Positions 4,498 to 62,850 of a stretch of 64,000 nt of DNA are shown one piece after another (position 1 is the first letter of the stretch; the number at the start of each line of letters is the position of its first letter). This DNA comes from Patescibacteria group bacterium (GTDB taxonomy: Bacteria > Patescibacteriota > Minisyncoccia > UBA6257 > JAAZHW01). The position numbers were made by a program, and so were the translations under genes. The stretch spans positions 111,057 to 175,056 of the forward strand of contig JAOAGL010000001.1 of the NCBI GenBank assembly GCA_026415775.1. Direction: 5' to 3'. A model generated the notes under the pieces. It did not search any database. It was not told the DNA's origin and worked only from the letters and a program-made list of their open reading frames with translations.

Positions 4498-4848
4498 TTA
4501 TTCGACTAAATAAATCTCATTTCCTTCGTGTACTTTTTGAATAACTTTAATTCCAACCTCATCGCCTTTTTTGGCTTTTTTAACTGGTTCGTGTTCAATT
4601 TGCATTGAGGTAACTTCTTGTTCAAATAAATCTCCTAAATGACTGCGGAAGAGAATTTTATCACCTATAGATAAAGGGGCTTTTAATTTTAAAGCCGCTA
4701 CACTAATTTTGTCAAAATAATGTGTAACAACACCTACTAATTTTTCTTTTTTCTGGGTTTTTGCTTTGGATTTTACAATTTTGGTCTTGCTTTTAGATTT
4801 TTTGTTTGATTTTTTGCTTTTTGATGTGGTTTTGGTTTTTTTAGGCAT
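4498..4848 (-). CDS. hypothetical basic (Lys-rich) protein with C-terminal beta-barrel-like domain
   Basis: About 40-aa N-terminal K/S/T-rich tail, then a compact domain. No confident family assignment. Confidence 0.35.
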   Translation of the reverse strand: MPKKTKTTSKSKKSNKKSKSKTKIVKSKAKTQKKEKLVGVVTHYFDKISVAALKLKAPLSIGDKILFRSHLGDLFEQEVTSMQIEHEPVKKAKKGDEVGIKVIQKVHEGNEIYLVE

Positions 4849-4872
4849 TTTTTTTATTTTAAAAATCGACCT

Positions 4873-5445
4873 TTAAAAATGATTGTTTGTTTTCTTTTCT
4901 TTATGGATAGCTTCAATTAATTGTTCTACTAATTCTTTCGGGTTACTATTAAAAATTACTTTGCCGGGTCCGCGACGTGCTTTTTCAATAATTTCTTTAA
5001 GCATATCTGAAATACCACCTGTTCCTTCTAGAACTCCTGTGAGTTTGTTTTCTTCAAATGCGACAGTAAATTCGTTTAATGTACCAATACGACCGCAAAT
5101 AGTTATAACAGCATCAGCAGCGCGGGTTAAAAGTAAATTGCGTCCTGCGTATCCCGACCCAGTATAGATAATTAAATCGTGATAATCAATTGGAAGATGA
5201 TATTTTTTAACATGTTCTTGTTCGGAAATAGCAGGTGATAAACCTATAACAATTCCCCCTGCTTCTTTGGCGGCTTTAGCCACCCAATAAGGAGCACCTG
5301 TTGTGGCACCTGTTACAACAACACAATCATGTTTAACTAATTCCCGTCCCAATTCCATAGACATTTCCATTGCTTGGGGACTACAAAGACCAGTTTCGGC
5401 AGCGCCGGAAATGGCAATTTTGATTTTTGGTTTAAAAATTTCCAT
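4873..5445 (-). CDS. LOG/TIGR00725-family Rossmann-fold protein (lysine decarboxylase-like/SLOG)
   Basis: VVTGATTGAPYWVAKAAKEAGGIVIGL and CGRIGTLNEF fit the LOG/DprA-like Rossmann motifs GGGxGxM and PGGxGTxxE. Confidence 0.5.
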   Translation of the reverse strand: MEIFKPKIKIAISGAAETGLCSPQAMEMSMELGRELVKHDCVVVTGATTGAPYWVAKAAKEAGGIVIGLSPAISEQEHVKKYHLPIDYHDLIIYTGSGYAGRNLLLTRAADAVITICGRIGTLNEFTVAFEENKLTGVLEGTGGISDMLKEIIEKARRGPGKVIFNSNPKELVEQLIEAIHKEKKTNNHF

Positions 5446-5492
5446 ATAGAATAATTATAATTAAAAAATTTTAAAAATAAAAATTTAATCAG

Positions 5493-5565
5493 TCCGCCCA
5501 GCAGGACTCGAACCTGCAACCGTTTGCTTAAGAGGCAACTGCTCTGCCAATTGAGCTATGGGCGG
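5493..5565 (-). tRNA. tRNA-Lys (anticodon CTT)
   Basis: Reverse complement CCGCCCATAGCTCAATTGGCAGAGCAGTTGCCTCTTAAGCAACGGTTGCAGGTTCGAGTCCTGCTGGGCGGA folds as a cloverleaf. Anticodon loop CTCTTAA. Confidence 0.75.
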
Positions 5566-5602
5566 ATATTTATATATTAAGGAAATTTTGGATTTCTTCA
5601 AG

Positions 5603-5625
5603 AAAAAAAAGGTCCTTAAAAAAGG
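5603..5625. terminator. bidirectional hairpin terminator
   Basis: aggtcctt-aaaaa-aggacct stem-loop flanked by A-run and T-run between convergent or adjacent units. Confidence 0.4.
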
Positions 5626-6293
5626 ACCTGTTGATATGTTTTATTTGCTACTTTTGCAATTTCAGTCATTATCCGATTGGTAGCTTCAATTAAAAACTGG
5701 GGATTTTCATCAATTTCTTTTTGATTTTTTATTTCGAGTTGAAATGGTTTGCCAATTCGAATTTCTTTTTTCGCAAAGAATCCGATAACACCCTCTTTAA
5801 ATCCATAAGTGCTCGGTCCAAAACATCCGATAGGAATAATCTGACAACCACTTATTAAAGCTATTACCGCCGCCCCCCTTTTTCCTTTTTTTAAAGAGGA
5901 AAAGGGATTTCGATGGCCTTCTGGGAAAATAACCACTATATTTCCTTCGTTAATTAATTTAACAGCCTTGATTAAACTTTCGCGCGCTGCTGGCAAATAG
6001 CCAATACTATCCATTCCGAGCGTTAATATTGTGCTTATTACATGATATTTAAGAAAATTTTTCTGGAGATGCTTGGCACCAATAAAGAAAACCTTTTTCT
6101 TTTTAGGTAAAAGATACATTTTAAAGTAGGCATAAAGAGCAGCAGCTATTATTGGCGGATCATAATTATTCTGATGATTAGCAATAATTAAAAATCCTCC
6201 GTCTTTTGGTAAATTTTCCAATCCCTCAATTTTTTCTAATCTCGGTCTGATTAAGGAATAAACAAAAAAATAGAGTAGTTTATAGAATAACAT
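5616..6293 (-). CDS. plsC: 1-acyl-sn-glycerol-3-phosphate acyltransferase
   Basis: H(x4)D acyltransferase motif (IIANHQNNYDP) and FPEGHRN (FPEGTR motif). Confidence 0.75.
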   Translation of the reverse strand: MLFYKLLYFFVYSLIRPRLEKIEGLENLPKDGGFLIIANHQNNYDPPIIAAALYAYFKMYLLPKKKKVFFIGAKHLQKNFLKYHVISTILTLGMDSIGYLPAARESLIKAVKLINEGNIVVIFPEGHRNPFSSLKKGKRGAAVIALISGCQIIPIGCFGPSTYGFKEGVIGFFAKKEIRIGKPFQLEIKNQKEIDENPQFLIEATNRIMTEIAKVANKTYQQVLF

Positions 6294-6363
6294 TCTAAAC
6301 CTCCTTCTAATAAAAATTTTTAAAAACCCACTTTATTTTATTAGTTTTTTTAATTTTTTCAAT

Positions 6364-6543
6364 TGTGCCCTCGGAGGGATTCGCCTACAAGTAATCTGCC
6401 TGACGGCAGATTCTCGCAGGCCGCCCCTCGCGGTGCTCGCCTTTTCCGCTTGCGCGGAAAAACTCGCACATCGCTGCGGGCTTCGAATCCTCCACGCAAG
6501 CAAAGCAGTTTGCTTGCTCGAGGTCACTCTCGCTTTGCTCGAG
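6364..6543. repeat. GC-rich, hairpin-dense tRNA-derived element containing a degenerate copy of the tRNA-Arg 3' end
   Basis: tgccctcggagggattcg (6366-6383) matches the tRNA-Arg 3' end tgccctcgggaggattcg (6544-6561) at 16 of 18 positions. Between them is about 160 nt at roughly 60% GC with perfect hairpins: ctgcc/ggcag, ttttccgc/gcggaaaa, gcaagcaaa/tttgcttgc. It does not fold as a cloverleaf. Confidence 0.5.
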
Positions 6544-6615
6544 TGCCCTCGGGAGGATTCGAACCCCCAATTCCAGTTCCGAAGACTGGCGTGATATCCG
6601 TTTCACCACGAGGGC
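6544..6615 (-). tRNA. tRNA-Arg (anticodon TCG)
   Basis: Reverse complement GCCCTCGTGGTGAAACGGATATCACGCCAGTCTTCGGAACTGGAATTGGGGGTTCGAATCCTCCCGAGGGCA. Canonical arms, anticodon loop CTTCGGA. Confidence 0.8.
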
Positions 6616-6755
6616 TAGAAATTGCAAGTTCTTTTTTAAATTTAATACTTTTCTTTTAAAAATCAACCCCATTGCATATTAAAAGAAAAATTGAAAGAAA
6701 AAATTATGTAAGTTATAATATCCAAAATAGTCAATTTGCCCCTCCTATTCCCCTT

Positions 6756-8741: not shown

Positions 8742-8865
8742 AGCGGCCGTGTTCTGCTTCGCGGCGGGAATTGGGATAATGGTGACAATGCCGGGGCGTT
8801 TACGCTGAACTTGAATTGGGACACGACGACTCAGAACAACAATGTGGGGTTTCGCTGCGCCCGCT
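8742..8865 (+). repeat. DGR template repeat (TR)
   Basis: Invariant donor copy of the VR. In the frame matching the VR it carries 8 AAY (Asn) codons (aat, aat, aat, aac, aat, aac, aac, aat) and encodes ...NNNVGFRCAR. Lies in the avd-RT intergenic region. Confidence 0.85.
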
Positions 8866-14555: not shown

Positions 14556-14656
14556 AATTATTTTCAAAAACCCCTTTCCTTGACAAAATATAAAAATAAA
14601 GTAGAATTTAGGCAGCTTTTTGAAAAAGAAAATTTTTTTTAAAAGGAGGTTTTACA

Positions 14657-16074
14657 TGAAAAAAAATTTAGGAGTGTTTGTGGTACTGCTGCTGCTGGCA
14701 ACAGCGGCAGCTGGGCAAGAAATTGAGTTGAAGGAGCTGGGAAGGGCTCCTTTGAGTCCATATCTCCAGTCCCCAGCGGAGGTAAGAACTCTTCTCGGTC
14801 GCGTGAATGAAGAGCTGGGCAGGGCTTTGGATTTTTTCCCTGGTGGAGGGCTCGGCGAACAAGTTTATGCCTCTCTCTATGAACAGTTGCAGAATTTGAA
14901 AATGGAAGTAGTAGATATTCATCCAAACCAAAAAATGGTTTGGATGATGTACTCGAAGGGACGTCTCCTGAAGTCGGTGGTTTGGAAAGGCAATGAGTCT
15001 TTCCAAGCGTACAAGTTCCGGCTGGAAGTGGAGGGAAAAATTTTTACATTTATAGTTCCAATTCGTTGCGGCAACATCGCGCTTCTCGAAATGCGAGAAG
15101 CGCCGGTAGCTCCACAACCACCAGCTCCAGTTCCACCGGCTCCTCAACCGCCAACTTCGCAACCACCAGCTCCTACTCCGCAGCCAATCCCAGTTCCGCA
15201 ACCGCCAGCTCCTCAGCCAACATCGGTGACTCCGGTCATGGTTCATTGGACTCCCACTATAAAAATAAAAGTGGGAGGGGGATGGGCAGGAATAAAATTT
15301 CCCGCACCAGTAGATTTTTCCAGCTCACGCGTTGACTTCTTCTCTCTTATTCCCGCTGATTCCTCCGTCTTCTATTGCGAAGACGGGGTAGCCTTCTGGT
15401 ACTACAGTCCTAGAAACTCCATTCCCTTTGCCGTCGGCCAGAGCGTACCGCTCTGGCGGCACGAGGTGGTAGAAATTCAGAAGGGAAAGAATTTTCCCTT
15501 CTACGCGCAGATAGAAATCGAGTTCGCGCGTAATTTATTCATTACCGGATCCTTTTTCGAACTCGGAAAATACTCTTCTTTCCAATACGAAGGAAAGGAG
15601 AGTATGGTATTGGACGAGGTACGTCTCCTCGGCCAATACCAGGGACAAGAAGGGCAGACCTGCCCCCCCACGTACGTCTATTACGTGGGGTTACACCGGG
15701 ACTGGCATGAAATCCTGGTCCGGGAGAACATCCGGATTCAGGAGTTTTCAGCTGGTATTTCATACCAGCTGAAGGTGGTGAGGAATGTTTTTGTCACCCC
15801 GCAGGGTGGGGTGACGTGGCAGACCCGGCGGGGTACCCGAGTGACGGATACCACTATTAGCAAGTGGTATCCGTTTAAGGAGGCCCCTCTCGAGAAAGAG
15901 AGGGTAACCGAGGTGGTGGAAAAGGTAAAATCCACCACAACCCACCCTTATGTGGGGATTGGGTTGGAAATCGGTCCCTTCTTTCTCGAAGGTCGCCGTC
16001 TGTTCGGCGACCAGCCGGGACCAATGAAAATCTCTCCCTGGCGTGTCCAGGGAGGGATCCTCCTAAAAATTTAA
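14657..16074 (+). CDS. secreted Pro-rich-linker protein with C-terminal beta-rich (barrel-like) domain, encoded in a compositionally foreign GC-rich island
   Basis: Strong SD (aaggagg) 7 nt before the ATG at 14657. Signal peptide MKKNLGVFVVLLLLATAAAGQE. APVAPQPPAPVPPAPQPP linker. C-terminal half has alternating hydrophobic beta-strand periodicity. Codon usage is GC3-rich (ctg, ggc, ccg), unlike its neighbours. Confidence 0.6.
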
Positions 16075-40183: not shown

Positions 40184-40256
40184 GGGCGCATAGCTCAGCG
40201 GTTAGAGCACAGACCTTATAAGTCTGGGGTCGATGGTTCGAATCCATCTGCGCCCA
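40184..40256 (+). tRNA. tRNA-Ile with UAU anticodon (AUA decoder)
   Basis: GGGCGCATAGCTCAGCGGTTAGAGCACAGACCTTATAAGTCTGGGGTCGATGGTTCGAATCCATCTGCGCCCA. Anticodon loop CTTATAA, so positions 34-36 read TAT. Confidence 0.7.
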
Positions 40257-40382
40257 CACTTTTTTTATTTTTTTATTGTTTTATAATCAATAAAAGAACC
40301 GCCTAAAACTTTGGCGGAAGACTCTTGCAAATTTTTAGTTTTTCTGGTATAATTAAAGTGTTGTCGATAAACAATAAAAAAT

Positions 40383-44836: not shown

Positions 44837-46276
44837 ATGAATAAAAACGATTTTATTAAAATTAAAGATTATTTGTGGGAGATTCCAAAAACATTCAGAG
44901 ATGATATGCGTGTTTCTGCAAGAGTTTATGCGAGTGAAAAATTAATTGATGAATCAATGCGCGATCGTTCTATTCATCAATTAATCAATGTGGCAACCTT
45001 GCCGGGAATTATTAATTATAGTTTAGCAATGCCTGATATTCACGAAGGTTACGGTTTTCCTATTGGGGGTGTTGCGGCTATTGATGCAAAAGAAGGCGTA
45101 ATTTCACCCGGTGGAGTCGGTTATGATATTAATTGTGGGATGCGTATTTTATTGTCTGATTATTCAAAAATTGATTTAGAACCATATTTAGATAGATTAG
45201 CAACAGCCATTGCTAAGGCAGTACCGTCAGGTCTTGGGAGAGGACATAAAGAAGGATTAAGCATTATAGATTTGGATAAAATTTTAAATGGCGGCGCAAA
45301 AAAATTAGTGGCAGATGGATATGGAGAGAAGGAGGATATTGAACTTTGTGAATCAAATGGATGTTTGGATTTTGCCGATGCAAAACTAGTTTCGTATAAA
45401 GCTAAAGATCGAGGTAGAGATCAGCTAGGAACTTTAGGGAGCGGGAATCATTTTTTAGAAATTCTTAAGGTAGCAGAAATTTTTGATGAGAGGCTTGCTC
45501 AAGTAATGGGATTTTTTCATGATCAAGTAGTTGTTATGATTCATACTGGTTCAAGAGGGCTGGGGCATCAGGTGGCAACCGATTATATTCAACAAATGAT
45601 GAAGTCAATGAAAAAATATAATATAAATGTTCCTGATAGAGAATTGGTTTGCGCGCCATTCCAAAGTGAGGAAGGACAAAGTTATTTTAGAGCAATGAGT
45701 GCGGCTGCCAATTTTGCTTGGGCTAATCGCCAAATGATTACTTTTTATATTCGGGAGGCTTGGGAGAAAATTTTGGGTAGAGATAAAAAATTAAAAATGT
45801 TGTATGATGTGGCGCATAACATTGCTAAATTAGAGGAGTATGAAATAGAAGGAGAAAAAAAGAAACTTCTAATTCATCGCAAAGGTTCAACGCGTGCTTT
45901 TCCGCCATTTCATCCAGAAATTCCCAAAAAATATCAAGCCATTGGTCAACCGGTATTGATTCCGGGCAGTATGGGGACAGCTTCATATATTTTGGTTGGG
46001 ACAGAAAAAGGATTAGAAAGTTGGTATTCCACTTGTCATGGTGCTGGTCGAAGGATGTCGCGTATGGCAGCAGTTAAAAATCTTTCTCCGAAAGAAATTA
46101 TTAAATATTTAGAAAATAAAGGGATTTTAGTTAAATGTGAAAGTTTGAAGGGTTTAGCCGAAGAAGCCCCAGAGGCATATAAAGACATAAATGAAGTGGT
46201 TAATATTGTTCACCAGAGCGATTTATCATTAAAAGTGGCTAAACTAGTGCCTTTGTCGGTAATAAAAGGAGAGTGA
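44837..46276 (+). CDS. rtcB: RNA ligase RtcB
   Basis: PDIHEGYGFPIGG, GYDINCG, GSGNHF and CHGAGR motifs. Confidence 0.9.
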   Translation: MNKNDFIKIKDYLWEIPKTFRDDMRVSARVYASEKLIDESMRDRSIHQLINVATLPGIINYSLAMPDIHEGYGFPIGGVAAIDAKEGVISPGGVGYDINCGMRILLSDYSKIDLEPYLDRLATAIAKAVPSGLGRGHKEGLSIIDLDKILNGGAKKLVADGYGEKEDIELCESNGCLDFADAKLVSYKAKDRGRDQLGTLGSGNHFLEILKVAEIFDERLAQVMGFFHDQVVVMIHTGSRGLGHQVATDYIQQMMKSMKKYNINVPDRELVCAPFQSEEGQSYFRAMSAAANFAWANRQMITFYIREAWEKILGRDKKLKMLYDVAHNIAKLEEYEIEGEKKKLLIHRKGSTRAFPPFHPEIPKKYQAIGQPVLIPGSMGTASYILVGTEKGLESWYSTCHGAGRRMSRMAAVKNLSPKEIIKYLENKGILVKCESLKGLAEEAPEAYKDINEVVNIVHQSDLSLKVAKLVPLSVIKGE

Positions 46277-46731
46277 TTATGAAAATTTTAGCCAAAAATA
46301 GCAAAGCGGAATTTAATTATGAAATTTTAGAAAGAATTGAAGCAGGAATCCAATTGCTTGGATGTGAGGTTAAATCTGTAAAAAATGGCAATGTTAATTT
46401 AACTGGTTCATTTGCCCAAATTTATGGTAATGAAATTTATTTAATCAATGCTAAAATTCCAGCTTGGCAGCCCCAAAATGCCCCTTTTAACTATCAAGAT
46501 GATCGGAGCCGCAAGTTATTGCTTCATAGAGAAGAAATTAAGCGATTAATTGGCAAAATGAAAACCGAGCGTTTATTGCTTATTCCCCTGGCGGTTTACT
46601 TGAAAAAAAATAAAATTAAAGTAGAATTAGGACTTGGTAGAAGCAGACATAAAATTGATAAAAGAGATATAATAAAACAACGCGAAGTAGAAAGAGAGAT
46701 AGCCCGCAACTTTAAAAATTATCAATTTTAG
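46273..46731 (+). CDS. smpB: SsrA-binding protein
   Basis: 152 aa, C-terminal basic tail. Immediately upstream of tmRNA. Confidence 0.85.
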   Translation: MIMKILAKNSKAEFNYEILERIEAGIQLLGCEVKSVKNGNVNLTGSFAQIYGNEIYLINAKIPAWQPQNAPFNYQDDRSRKLLLHREEIKRLIGKMKTERLLLIPLAVYLKKNKIKVELGLGRSRHKIDKRDIIKQREVEREIARNFKNYQF

Positions 46732-46738
46732 TCAAAAG

Positions 46739-47085
46739 GGGGATGATCGGCCTCGAGACGGAAAAGCATTTTCGAGTCAGGCCGAGGAGCCGTTACCTCG
46801 TAAATCAACGGGAAACAAAAAACTGCCAATTTTAGCAGAAATTTGGCTTTTGCTTTAGCATAAGCCCATCCAATTAGCTGATGCTCGATAGGCTAAAAGG
46901 GTGTCAAATTATCGAGCTTGGCTCTTTCTAGGCGTCTTTGGCTAGAAGAGCAACCTAACTCCAAAGACAGGGACTAATAATTTTGCCGATTTTAGATATT
47001 AGTCCTTAAGAAAAATCGGCTGATTGTCTGGAAAGCTCGAAAATCAACTTTTTCGTCCACGCGGGTTCGATTCCCGCCATCTCCA
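46739..47085 (+). ncRNA. ssrA: tmRNA (SsrA)
   Basis: 5' GGGGATG pairs with 3' CATCTCC. T-arm GCGGGTTCGATTCCCGC. Internal tag reading frame GCC AAT TTT AGC AGA AAT TTG GCT TTT GCT TTA GCA TAA gives ANFSRNLAFALA. Confidence 0.85.
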
Positions 47086-47122
47086 CTAAATTATCCGGTC
47101 GGTCGATTTTTAAAATTCTAAG

Positions 47123-59931: not shown

Positions 59932-60336
59932 ATGCCGACAACACAAGTTCCACAATTTATTAATTTAGAAAGCAAAATTGTTGGGCCGTTAACCCTTCGT
60001 CAATTTTTATTTCTGGGGGGCGGAGGAGTTTTAATTTTTATTTTAAATTCTATTTTAACAACAGGTCTATGGATTTTAGTAAGCATTGTTATTGGTTTAA
60101 TTTCAATTGCTTTGGCTTTTGTGAAAATTAACGAGCAGCCGCTTCATAAAATCCTAATCAACGCTTTAAAATTTTATATTAATCCTCGTTTATATACTTG
60201 GAAAAAACCACAAGCAACAAAGCCATTATTAAAAGAAACAAAACCAATTGTTGCTAAAAAAGAAGAAAAAAAGCGATTAACCGTCGAAGAATTAGAAGCA
60301 ATAGCTAAACAATTAGAAGAAAAAAATAATCAATAA
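59932..60336 (+). CDS. PrgI/VirB3-like small membrane protein
   Basis: 134 aa. INLESKIVGPLTLRQFLFLGGGGVLIFIL then a second TM. Directly upstream of the VirB4-like ATPase cluster, as in Gram-positive PrgI-PrgJ arrangements. Confidence 0.5.
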   Translation: MPTTQVPQFINLESKIVGPLTLRQFLFLGGGGVLIFILNSILTTGLWILVSIVIGLISIALAFVKINEQPLHKILINALKFYINPRLYTWKKPQATKPLLKETKPIVAKKEEKKRLTVEELEAIAKQLEEKNNQ

Positions 60337-60338
60337 TT

Positions 60339-61043
60339 ATGATAGGAGGCGCTTCTACAGAAAAATTCATAGATATTGAGACAATCAAAGACGATTGCGT
60401 TATTTTAAAAGACGGCTCTTTAAGGGCGGTTTTAATGGTTTCTGGCATTAACTTTGATTTATTGTCGGAAACTGAACAAGAGATAGTGTTAAATGCTTAC
60501 CAGAATTTATTAAATTCTTTAGATTTTCCACTGCAAATTCTTGTTCATTCTCGAAAAATCAATCTTGATAATTATTTGCAAAAGATTAAAGAAATTGAAA
60601 AAAACGAGCAGAACGAACTTTTGAAATTGCAAATTCAAGAATACCGCAATTTTATCGATGAATTAATAAAAAGCACCAATATTATGACAAAAAGATTTTA
60701 TGTTGTTATTCCTTATTCGCCATCACTTATTTCCGCAAGTAGCTCGGCTAATCCATTAACGCAAATTTTTCAAAAATTACCTTTTGGCAAGCAAAAAGCA
60801 AATATTCAACAACAAGAAATTGATGCCGAAACACAATTTGTTAATAATAAAATGCAATTATATCATCGCGTCAGCGCTGTTATTTCTGCTTTGAAGCCAA
60901 TGGGTTTAAATGCCATCCGTCTTAAAACGCCGGAGTTAATTGAATTATATTACAACTTTTATAATCCCGAAAAACAAGAAAGGGTCGGTTTGGCTATTAC
61001 AGCCGAACTAGAACAATTAGAAGAAGAACCATTAATAGAGTAA
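60339..61043 (+). CDS. hypothetical protein in T4SS-like cluster
   Basis: 234 aa, no TM. Start overlaps the upstream stop closely, suggesting translational coupling. Confidence 0.35.
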   Translation: MIGGASTEKFIDIETIKDDCVILKDGSLRAVLMVSGINFDLLSETEQEIVLNAYQNLLNSLDFPLQILVHSRKINLDNYLQKIKEIEKNEQNELLKLQIQEYRNFIDELIKSTNIMTKRFYVVIPYSPSLISASSSANPLTQIFQKLPFGKQKANIQQQEIDAETQFVNNKMQLYHRVSAVISALKPMGLNAIRLKTPELIELYYNFYNPEKQERVGLAITAELEQLEEEPLIE

Positions 61044-61047
61044 AAAT

Positions 61048-62850
61048 ATGCCATTTTTACCTTTTTCATCAAAAAAAGACGAAGAAATAAAAATTCCGAA
61101 ACCATCGCGAACGGGCTTGCAAACCATTAGAGAAATTTTAACCCCACCCGCTTTGGAGATAGAGTCAACATATGTACGCCTGGGCGATTTGTATACCAAA
61201 ACTTACTATATTATTTCGTATCCGCGCTATCTTACTTCTGGTTGGTTTTCGCCTGTCCTCAATATTGACCAAACAGTTGATGTTTCTATTTTTGTTCAGC
61301 CAGTTGATACAGGAGTAGCCTTAAAACAATTACGAAGAAAAGTAGCTCAAGTAGAAGCTCAACTTTTAGAAAGAGAAGAAAAGGGATTGGTGAGAGATCC
61401 AGTGTTAGAAACCGCTTATCAAGATTTAGAAAACTTACGTGACGCCTTGCAGCAAGCAAGAGAAAAACTTTTTGAAGTCGGTGTTTATATTGCTATTTAC
61501 GCCTCTAATCTCAAAGAATTGGAAGAAATTGAGCAGAAAATTATAAGTTTCTTGGAGGGGAGAATGGTCTATATAAAACCAGCACTTTTTCAACAATCGG
61601 AGGGGTTATTATCTTGCTTTCCTTTGAATAAGGATTATTTGAGCGTTCATTCAACATTGAATTCTTCGCCTGTTTCTACTTTTTTCCCTTTTATTTCTTT
61701 GGATTTAACTTCAGATAAAGGAATTTTTTACGGCATTAATCGACATAATAATAGTTTGATTATTTTTGATAGGTTCTCTTTAGAAAATGGTAATATGGTA
61801 ATTTTTGCTAAATCCGGTAGCGGTAAATCTTATTTTTGTAAATTGGAGGTTTTGCGTTCTTTAATGATGGGAACCGATGTAATTATTATTGATCCCGAGA
61901 AAGAATACCAGCATTTAGCAGAAACAGTTGGAGGTTCATTTATAAATATTTCTTTAACTTCAGAGCACCATATTAATCCTTTTGATTTGCCACCGCCTCG
62001 TCCTGATGAAAAACCCGAAGAGGTTTTGAAATCAAACATTTTAAATCTTACGGGTTTATTAAGAATTATGCTTGGTGAATTAACTTCTGAACAAATTGGA
62101 ATTTTGGATAGAGCGATTGCTGAAACTTATGCCTCCCGCGATATTACTCCAGAAAGCGATTTTACCAAATTAACTCCCCCATTAATGGAGGATTTGCAAG
62201 CGGTGTTGGAAAATATGGAGGGTGGTGCTGAATTGGCTGATAGATTATTTAAATTTACGCGAGGCACTTTCGCTGGTTTTCTCAATAAACCCACTAATGT
62301 TGATATTGATAATCGTTTGGTTGTTTTTGCCATTCGTGATTTAGAAGATGAGCTGCGGCCAATTGCAATGTATATGGTTTTGAATTTTATTTGGAATTTA
62401 ATTCGTTCGCAACTAAAAAGAAGAATTTTGATTGTTGATGAAGCATGGTGGATGATGAAATATCCAGCAGGCGCAGATTTCTTGTTTGGATTAGTAAAGC
62501 GTTGTCGAAAATATCATATGGGCGTGACAACAATTACCCAAGATGTTGAAGATTTTATAAGAACGCCGCAAGGGAAACCAATTATCACAAATTCCGCGTT
62601 GCAATTGCTTTTAAAGCAATCGCCTGCTTCTATTGAGGTGGTAGCCGAAACATTTAATTTAACTGAAGCAGAGAAACAATTGCTTTTAAGCGCTAATGTA
62701 GGAGAGGGGATATTTTTTGCGGGTGCAAAACATGTGGCTATTAAAGTAATTGCCTCTTATACCGAGGATCAGATAATTACTACCAATCCAGCTCAAATGC
62801 TTCAAATTGAAAAAGCCAAAGAAATGTTTGATAAAAGCTTTGGGGCATAG
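61048..62850 (+). CDS. VirB4/TraE/PrgJ-family type IV secretion ATPase
   Basis: Walker A FAKSGSGKSYFCK and Walker B ILIVDEAWWMM. About 600-aa size and domain order match the VirB4 C-terminal ATPase. Confidence 0.75.
   Translation: MPFLPFSSKKDEEIKIPKPSRTGLQTIREILTPPALEIESTYVRLGDLYTKTYYIISYPRYLTSGWFSPVLNIDQTVDVSIFVQPVDTGVALKQLRRKVAQVEAQLLEREEKGLVRDPVLETAYQDLENLRDALQQAREKLFEVGVYIAIYASNLKELEEIEQKIISFLEGRMVYIKPALFQQSEGLLSCFPLNKDYLSVHSTLNSSPVSTFFPFISLDLTSDKGIFYGINRHNNSLIIFDRFSLENGNMVIFAKSGSGKSYFCKLEVLRSLMMGTDVIIIDPEKEYQHLAETVGGSFINISLTSEHHINPFDLPPPRPDEKPEEVLKSNILNLTGLLRIMLGELTSEQIGILDRAIAETYASRDITPESDFTKLTPPLMEDLQAVLENMEGGAELADRLFKFTRGTFAGFLNKPTNVDIDNRLVVFAIRDLEDELRPIAMYMVLNFIWNLIRSQLKRRILIVDEAWWMMKYPAGADFLFGLVKRCRKYHMGVTTITQDVEDFIRTPQGKPIITNSALQLLLKQSPASIEVVAETFNLTEAEKQLLLSANVGEGIFFAGAKHVAIKVIASYTEDQIITTNPAQMLQIEKAKEMFDKSFGA

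Follow-up and report, generated by a model that had tools for sequence, protein, structure and literature searches.

The tRNA-Arg locus and its relatives with an empty site

The window analysed here is a 64,000-nt stretch of a Patescibacteria group bacterium (assembly GCA_026415775.1, contig JAOAGL010000001.1, positions 111,057 to 175,056), a 33.7% G+C genome of the Minisyncoccia. It carries a tRNA-Arg(TCG) gene on its minus strand, and on that strand the tRNA is followed by a GC-rich block, an AT-rich spacer with a promoter-like site, and a PlsC-type acyltransferase gene (Table 1). The block is 60% G+C against 31% in its flanks. An earlier note, made from the sequence alone, had described it as packed with hairpins and ending in a near-copy (16/18) of the tRNA 3' end, and that description is correct. 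The direct repeat is in fact 19 nt with 17 identical positions; a search allowing up to 3 mismatches found exactly these two sites, with 0 in 100 shuffles. The tRNA-sense strand folds at -97.5 kcal/mol (z = -7.5) and the opposite strand at -80.6 (z = -4.7). One feature not in the note is an inverted copy of the T-arm within the block. The neighbouring diversity-generating retroelement (DGR), with its VR, TR, bAvd and RT, is real, but T4SS-like genes are also present, so that the DGR is not the only mobile-looking system in the window as the note had supposed.

Table 1. Coordinates of features in the window, with the observations that support them
Position	Strand	Feature	Support
361-1708 and 59932-62850		T4SS-like genes: three T4SS_pilin ORFs, a PrgI-family protein and a VirB4/TraG-like ATPase	
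5616-6293		PlsC-type acyltransferase gene	
6363-6659	+	Spurious ORF, runs through the tRNA	
6385-6672	-	Spurious ORF, runs through the tRNA	
6365-6383	-	Displaced native 3' end of tRNA-Arg (CGAATCCCTCCGAGGGCAC), the insertion scar	Identical to the tRNA 3' end of the empty-site relatives L001 and L002 and followed by the same flank, AATTGAAAAAATT
6384-6561	-	Inserted 178-nt unit, from C56' of the tRNA to the end of the P6 arm (...ACTTGTAGG)	Single 178-nt gap against L001 at position 2910; covariance model R1 scores 151 bits at 6373-6517
6384-6421	-	P6 arm of the core, a 17-bp hairpin with loop CGUCAG	Loop invariant in the 16-sequence alignment; 13 of 17 pairs with compensatory changes; two conserved G·U pairs
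6425-6480	-	P2-P5 arm of the core: CCC/GGG, GCG/CGC, GUGC/GCAC, a tandem G·A/A·G and a terminal hairpin	Two alignments and pair counts; sequence nearly invariant across phyla
6478-6493	-	Antisense T-arm (GGAGGATTCGAAGCCC), complementary to tRNA positions 50-65 and so spanning the insertion point between 55 and 56	15/16 (94%) complementary to 6552-6567; co-varies with six different T-stems across the family
6496-6517	-	H2 hairpin, 9 bp with a CUGC loop	All 9 pairs with compensatory changes
6519-6527	-	Antisense copy of the acceptor 3' strand plus discriminator (GTGACCTCG against GTGCCCTCG expected, 8/9)	Read directly from the sequence; pairs with the proximal copy in the whole-transcript fold; 12/12 equivalent in L021
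6528-6542	-	Apical loop / H1 motif TCGAGCAAAGCGAGA, at the top of the long arm formed by the sense and antisense tRNA copies	Predicted folds; the same motif, TCGAGCGAAAGCGAGAG, occurs in the E. coli tyrT-tyrV spacer unit
6543-6561	-	Element-borne copy of tRNA segment C56-C74 (CGAATCCTCCCGAGGGCAC), the present 3' end of the tRNA	Carries the CCTCCC variant of L008, L009 and L018; relatives without the element have CCCTCC
6544-6615	-	tRNA-Arg(TCG) (called at 6543/6544-6615); its last 18 nt (C56 to A73) are now supplied by the element	ARAGORN; Rfam tRNA, 63.7 bits
8100-8224		DGR VR	
8742-8865		DGR TR	
14620-16074	+	484-aa ORF with a signal peptide and a proline-rich linker	57-65% G+C; no Pfam match
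40184-40257	+	tRNA-Ile with anticodon TAT (UAU)	
44837-46276	+	RtcB RNA ligase	E = 4e-169
46273-46731		SmpB	
46739-47088		tmRNA	

Relatives of the locus were reached through homologues of the acyltransferase; these and the other loci are designated here by L numbers. L001, from a JGI metagenome, has 98% protein identity and the same gene order, including the DGR, and it differs by one 178-nt gap at this spot with only one mismatch in the surrounding 1.25 kb. Its tRNA ends ..GGGGGTTCGAATCCCTCCGAGGGCAC followed by AATTGAAAAAATT, which is exactly the distal repeat of the window and its flank. L002, which is 78-83% identical and has no DGR, has the same empty site. The distal repeat is therefore the displaced original 3' end, and the proximal copy, whose CCTCCC variant is typical of other elements of the family described below, came in with the insert; the exchange must lie between C56 and C62, in the shared CGAATCC. 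Precise loss by recombination between the two 19-nt repeats would leave the same empty site, so gain in the window lineage rests on parsimony with L002 as outgroup, but either way the event is very recent. L001 3300-5500 is a 2.2-kb tract that is 5-10% diverged from the window (about 4800-6000 and beyond) between two otherwise 99-100% identical strains, and it starts inside plsC about 400 nt from the insertion. We considered import of the element together with this tract, but the 350 nt next to the insert are identical, so the tract is a separate event, probably a homologous-recombination import.

The interpretation offered in the note is partly supported. The duplicated tRNA 3' end does mark an insertion at the tRNA gene, as it proposed, and its two alternatives, a structured RNA and a displaced original tRNA end, also hold in that the block is a conserved structured RNA-like element and the distal repeat is the native end. 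A link with the DGR is not supported, since L001 has the DGR without the element, and L008, L018 and L009 carry the element at the orthologous tRNA-Arg, next to the CCA-adding enzyme gene, with no DGR. The note had named two observations that would count against it: a clean Rfam match, of which there is none, and presence of the element at this tRNA in DGR-free relatives without evidence of insertion; the element is indeed present in DGR-free relatives, but there it shows clear evidence of insertion. That an integrase was responsible is unproven.

The unit has no coding capacity, and the two ORFs that cross it are mechanical. Among the 59 ORFs of at least 90 aa picked from the window there is no integrase, transposase, HUH enzyme or RT other than that of the DGR, although the window does encode FtsK with a gamma domain and RtcB, the latter directly upstream of smpB and ssrA in a very small genome, which bears on any RNA cleavage-and-sealing or RNA-circle model for the element. 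The GC-rich 484-aa ORF is probably a recently acquired foreign gene, and the tRNA-Ile(TAT) is an uncommon way for bacteria to read AUA.

A family of tRNA-associated elements and its predicted fold

A 20-mer from the centre of the block found 24 metagenome contigs, about 19 of which are true relatives. A looser two-block pattern returned at least 120 stretches from genomes, nearly all of them chance hits in GC-rich genomes; only five were real, and the covariance model described below rejected 98 of the others. These five are in genomes named Patescibacteria group bacterium (two), Candidatus Campbellbacteria, Candidatus Omnitrophota and Elusimicrobiales, so that the family is known from about 25 loci in Patescibacteria, Omnitrophota and Elusimicrobia. 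Members lie 3' of tRNA-Arg(TCG), Leu(TAA), Leu(TAG), Leu(GAG), Ser(CGA), Ser(TGA), Tyr(GTA) and initiator Met genes, always in the orientation of the tRNA, and one sits at a rearranged site beside tRNA-Phe. In L118 the proximal tRNA-Ser ends at the discriminator and is followed by the element, whereas the distal copy is followed by CCA and the native flank; the duplicated segment therefore runs from C56 to N73. BLAST of the element against phage and plasmid records, and three pattern scans of viral contigs, found nothing, and literature searches, including searches for the core sequence as text, found no description of such a family.

Short forms (about 160-183 nt) and long forms (about 327 nt; L007, L011, L013, L020 and L029) exist. 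The long forms carry in the H2 loop an extra, AT-richer domain of about 146 nt (UGUCCCGAAAUUG ... UUUUCGGGAC), which is also present in the second unit of L008. This domain replaces the loop in two different 5'-module lineages and differs between L028 and L029, two almost identical strains with a short and a long form, respectively, at the same site; it is either a nested insertion or a module exchanged between elements.

Alignments of 17 and of 16 members give a consensus of 50 predicted pairs, 32 of them with compensatory changes. In this consensus 97.4% of cells are paired, against 82% after shuffling and about 44% when the partner is slid, and three pairs are conserved as G·U on the tRNA-sense strand. 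The core, of about 105 nt, is a three-way junction in which one helix joins an antisense T-stem to the tRNA copy, the second arm, P2-P5, is almost invariant in sequence (CCGCAGCGAUGUGCGAGUU ... AGGCGAGCACCGCGAGG) with tandem G·A pairs that explain the five GCGAG motifs, and the third is the P6 hairpin. A K-turn reading of the GA motifs does not fit, as the bulge is 1 nt and not 3. A tRNA-like acceptor stem was dropped as a defining feature, because the stretch before H2 pairs in different registers in different subfamilies and the discriminator base is paired. The covariance model built from the alignment (R1) scores 118-162 bits on typical members, finds partial extra copies in L008 and L015, finds exactly one copy in the window, and gives no hits in 738 kb of unrelated genomes.

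Upstream of the core each element carries a segment complementary to the T-arm of the tRNA that it follows. This segment extends across the 55|56 insertion point, by 12+3 nt in the window and by 14 contiguous nt in L013, and in L021 it matches an aberrant T-loop. Further upstream lies the antisense copy of the acceptor 3' strand. The antisense segment fits the proximal copy better than the distal one in the window, L023, L027, L028 and L109, and distal copies are often decayed (L010b, L025, L106, L109). The natural unit is therefore sense C56-C74, loop, antisense acceptor, H2, antisense T-arm, P2-P5 and P6, opened between P6 and C56 on integration; folding of the whole transcript, or of the DNA strand, gives this long arm with the proximal copy.

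Several features suggest mobility. Tandem units have the intact one next to the tRNA and the older, decayed or truncated one further away (L010, L008, L009), and L015 has two copies on a 3.8-kb contig. L010 and L025 share a downstream flank but follow different tRNAs, which implies recombination between copies, and modules are shuffled, in that the P6 variants and the short or long H2 occur in different combinations. The element is 97-98% identical between genomes whose flanking genes are 73-83% identical. In L023 and L027 (segments of about 660 nt, positions about 190-360) a truncated 5' fragment of a tRNA (GCCTCGGTAGCTCAGTGGTAGAGCGCC) is followed by a whole tRNA-Phe, a chimeric tRNA 3' fragment and then the element, whose distal copy (..CCGAGGCA) matches the truncated fragment, a compound rearrangement at one tRNA site.

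No recombinase, transposase, RT or nuclease recurs among 100 ORFs around 19 members, where the recurrent Pfam families are housekeeping ones and T4SS pilins. An 83-aa GIY-YIG ORF (L071 261-509, plus strand; L118 3222-3470, minus strand; 62% identical between the two) lies 120-180 nt downstream of the distal copy, with a hairpin between them that is conserved by compensatory changes, but it is seen only in these two related Patescibacteria.

Comparison with RtT repeats and other systems

The closest known object is the E. coli tyrT-tyrV locus, whose 178-bp repeats and their product, RtT RNA (rttR; Rfam RF00391), were described in 1978-1991 (Egan & Landy; Rossi et al.; Bösl & Kersten). This locus holds four RtT units, three after tyrV that are spaced 178 nt start to start and a fourth between tyrT and tyrV. 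As in the new family, the repeats lie directly 3' of a tRNA gene in its orientation, and each unit ends in a 19-nt copy of the tRNA-Tyr 3' end and is closed by a helix between that copy and an upstream antisense T-stem followed by GAGAA; GGAUGAGAA is identical in the RtT consensus and in L071, L109 and L118. Both have an internal hairpin of the type UCGAGC-N3/4-GCGAGA with a tandem G·A and a hairpin with a GUCA loop, and neither has a known function. RtT is annotated as a processed 171-nt sRNA; no expression data are available for the new element, the only indirect point being the absence of a terminator between the tRNA and the element. RtT units are present in 4726 of 5426 complete E. coli genomes, at 1-9 places per genome, and one preprint reports raised mobilome coverage of the tyrT-rttR region under stress (10.1101/2024.07.17.603846).

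The differences are nevertheless substantial. RF00391, with a membership threshold of 45 bits, gave no hit on window 6250-6700 at E up to 10, nor on L118, L109, L071 and L029 at E up to 5, whereas the same scan gave 133-138 bits on the four E. coli units; at the gathering threshold and in these relaxed Rfam searches only tRNAs were found, sub-threshold sX4 hits being the tRNA-Ser itself. The P2-P5 arm that dominates the new family has no counterpart in RtT, the copied tRNA segment is C56-C74 here and A58-A76 (with CCA) in E. coli, and the new family sits at eight or more tRNAs and shows an empty site in a near-identical strain. Model R1 gives only 2.6-3.9 bits (E about 2-4, not significant) on E. 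coli K-12 (NC_000913 1285800-1288300). These weak hits include 921-1039, 1099-1232 and 1277-1410 of that segment, which overlap the three units after tyrV, and 1574-1632 in the tyrT-tyrV spacer unit, which also contains CCACAGCGAUGUG, 12/13 identical to the invariant CCGCAGCGAUGUG of the new family's core. We therefore call this a resemblance in architecture and a possible distant homology, not membership.

Integrase-mediated islands and prophages at tRNA genes, and their integrase-less derivatives (CIMEs), likewise insert in or near the T-loop, carry the 3' part of the tRNA so that the gene stays intact, leave the displaced native end as a direct repeat, and accrete in tandem at the same site. 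The present unit, however, is 178 nt with no gene and no integrase nearby (there is no room for a recombinase gene, no tyrosine or serine recombinase family was found among the 59 ORFs of the window, and none recurs among the 100 ORFs around 19 members), its boundaries and fold are conserved across phyla, and the element and the tRNA are alike only to the right of the exchange point. Integron attC sites and the CTX phage attP used by XerCD offer an analogy only, that of a site-specific exchange in which one partner is a strand-specific folded hairpin imitating a duplex site, with structure conserved more than sequence and an integrated form that is a circular permutation of the free form; the target here is a tRNA T-loop and not attI or dif, and no IntI or Xer protein was tested. 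The group I introns described in Patescibacteria tRNAs are also structured, protein-less insertions with an internal guide that pairs with both sides of the insertion point, but those lie in the anticodon loop (35/36), interrupt the tRNA and self-splice, whereas here ARAGORN and Rfam find a complete tRNA that uses the proximal copy, and the Rfam group I model does not match at E up to 10.

Proposed mode of movement and alternatives

We think it most likely (with a probability of roughly 0.55) that the block is one copy of a non-coding, non-autonomous mobile element of about 160-330 nt that targets the T-loop of tRNA genes. The analysis itself shows that the unit is inserted between tRNA positions 55 and 56, that at its 5' end it carries its own copy of segment C56-N73(+1), which becomes the working 3' end of the tRNA, and that the native end is pushed 178 nt downstream as a scar that later decays; it also shows the family, its covariation-supported fold on the tRNA-sense strand, and the antisense anatomy, in which the sense copy pairs with antisense copies of the acceptor 3' strand and the T-arm, H2 branches off, and this arm meets P2-P5 and P6 at the three-way junction. 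The rest is inference from end products, as no circular form, enzyme or transcript has been observed. In this view the mobile form is the circularly closed unit, which integrates by a single crossover inside the short identity with the T-loop (CGAATCC in this window), between the end of P6 and C56; the reaction is catalysed in trans by an enzyme encoded elsewhere, with a tyrosine-type recombinase acting on a duplex or folded single strand our first choice and a HUH-type single-strand transposase the second; the conserved core is the cis-acting recognition structure; and the antisense T-arm chooses or holds the target by base pairing. Since the element lies inside the tRNA transcription unit, it is also expected to be made as an RNA released by tRNA 3' processing, as is annotated for E. 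coli RtT RNA.

Some observations fit this model poorly. To the left of C56 the element (..GTAGG) and the tRNA (..GGGTT) are not alike and the element lacks two bases relative to the tRNA, which does not look like a symmetric core site of a tyrosine recombinase, and the conserved G·U pairs and invariant internal loops point to a functional RNA or single strand rather than duplex DNA. In L028 and L029 the distal copy does not match the local tRNA-Leu, which needs additional events to explain, and co-variation of the antisense segment could come from gene conversion between inverted repeats rather than from a guide function.

An unlikely but not negligible alternative is that the block is an RtT-like small RNA gene that serves the host, a processed 3'-trailer RNA with a tRNA-like closing helix that spreads and varies only through homologous recombination, unequal crossing-over and transformation between strains. 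Its position within the tRNA transcription unit, with the native terminator following the distal copy in several loci, the RtT architecture and the near-invariance of the core across phyla all fit this view. Against it are the occurrence at eight or more tRNAs with ends and antisense segment adapted to each, the presence or absence between near-identical strains, the decay of old copies, the high identity of elements between genomes with diverged flanks, and the arrangement of proximal and distal variants in the window, which needs an exchange inside 7 nt. Movement at the RNA level is somewhat less likely still: the transcript, or an RNA circle sealed by a ligase such as RtcB, would use the antisense T-arm to insert into a tRNA or the tRNA-sense DNA strand between 55 and 56 and would then be copied back into DNA, the core being a ribozyme or the binding site of a reverse transcriptase. 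The guide-like segment across the insertion point, the strand-specific folding with conserved G·U pairs and invariant internal loops, the RtcB gene in the window, the DGR-type RTs in this lineage, and a whole-transcript minimum-energy fold in which the element sits as an insertion in the T-loop of a tRNA closed by the distal copy are in its favour, but no known ribozyme or intron family matches even at E up to 10, most carriers show no RT nearby, the tRNA is complete without splicing and distal copies decay so that splicing is not needed, and there are no CCA or poly-A footprints at the junctions of tandem units.

A single-stranded DNA element of the IS200/IS605 (PATE) kind, moved by a HUH Y1 transposase encoded elsewhere that recognises the hairpins as end structures, is likewise doubtful. 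There is no target-site duplication in the strict sense, there are no terminal inverted repeats, the hairpins are strand-specific and insertion is always 3' of the T-loop ..GGTT; moreover, the tRNA-sense strand is expected to be the lagging-strand template if tRNA genes are co-oriented with replication, an inference from the negative GC skew on the plus strand. Neither a Y1 transposase nor TnpB was found in the 64-kb window or near any member, but the rest of the genome was not seen, so this comparison does not decide the matter either way; Rfam's IS605-associated RNA motifs do not match, and carrying an 18-nt copy of the target is not a known feature of these elements. That the block is the degraded attL plus attR remnant of a larger integrase-bearing island or prophage, of which direct repeats of the tRNA 3' end are the classical footprint, is already contradicted, since the same unit of about 180 nt with the same boundaries recurs at many tRNAs and in several phyla, its structure is conserved by compensatory changes, and it has no similarity to the phage, plasmid or viral sequences searched. 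A more radical possibility, not excluded but improbable, is that target choice and possibly the chemistry lie in the fold itself: a closed RNA or single-stranded unit of about 178 nt would pair through its internal guide across positions 50-65 of a tRNA or tRNA gene and swap its own copy of the 3' segment for that of the target, with the P2-P5 and P6 core acting as a ribozyme or as the handle for a still unknown guided recombinase, and the E. coli RtT repeats would then be a decayed relative of such elements.

The 178-bp repeats behind E. coli tRNA-Tyr and their RtT RNA have been known for decades without a clear origin or function. The window shows a much wider and more informative set of look-alikes in candidate-phyla bacteria, with an empty site in a near-identical strain, many tRNA targets, tandem accretion, a covariation-supported fold and a guide-like antisense T-arm, which together turn a curiosity into a testable hypothesis of a protein-less, structure-driven element that lives in tRNA transcription units and repairs the gene it splits. 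If the mechanism is guided by base pairing it would be of interest for programmable insertion, and if it depends on a trans-acting recombinase the covariance model offers a way to find that enzyme by phylogenetic profiling. These blocks also matter for annotation, as they create spurious ORFs and tRNA 3' fragments in small genomes. We note that downstream of the elements in L013, L015, L106 and L109 other short GC-rich stretches rich in CTCGC/GCGAG (for example GGTCGCCTCGCCTTCGGCTCGGCTCGC) lie in AT-rich intergenic DNA, and these may be a second kind of small GC-rich element in these genomes.
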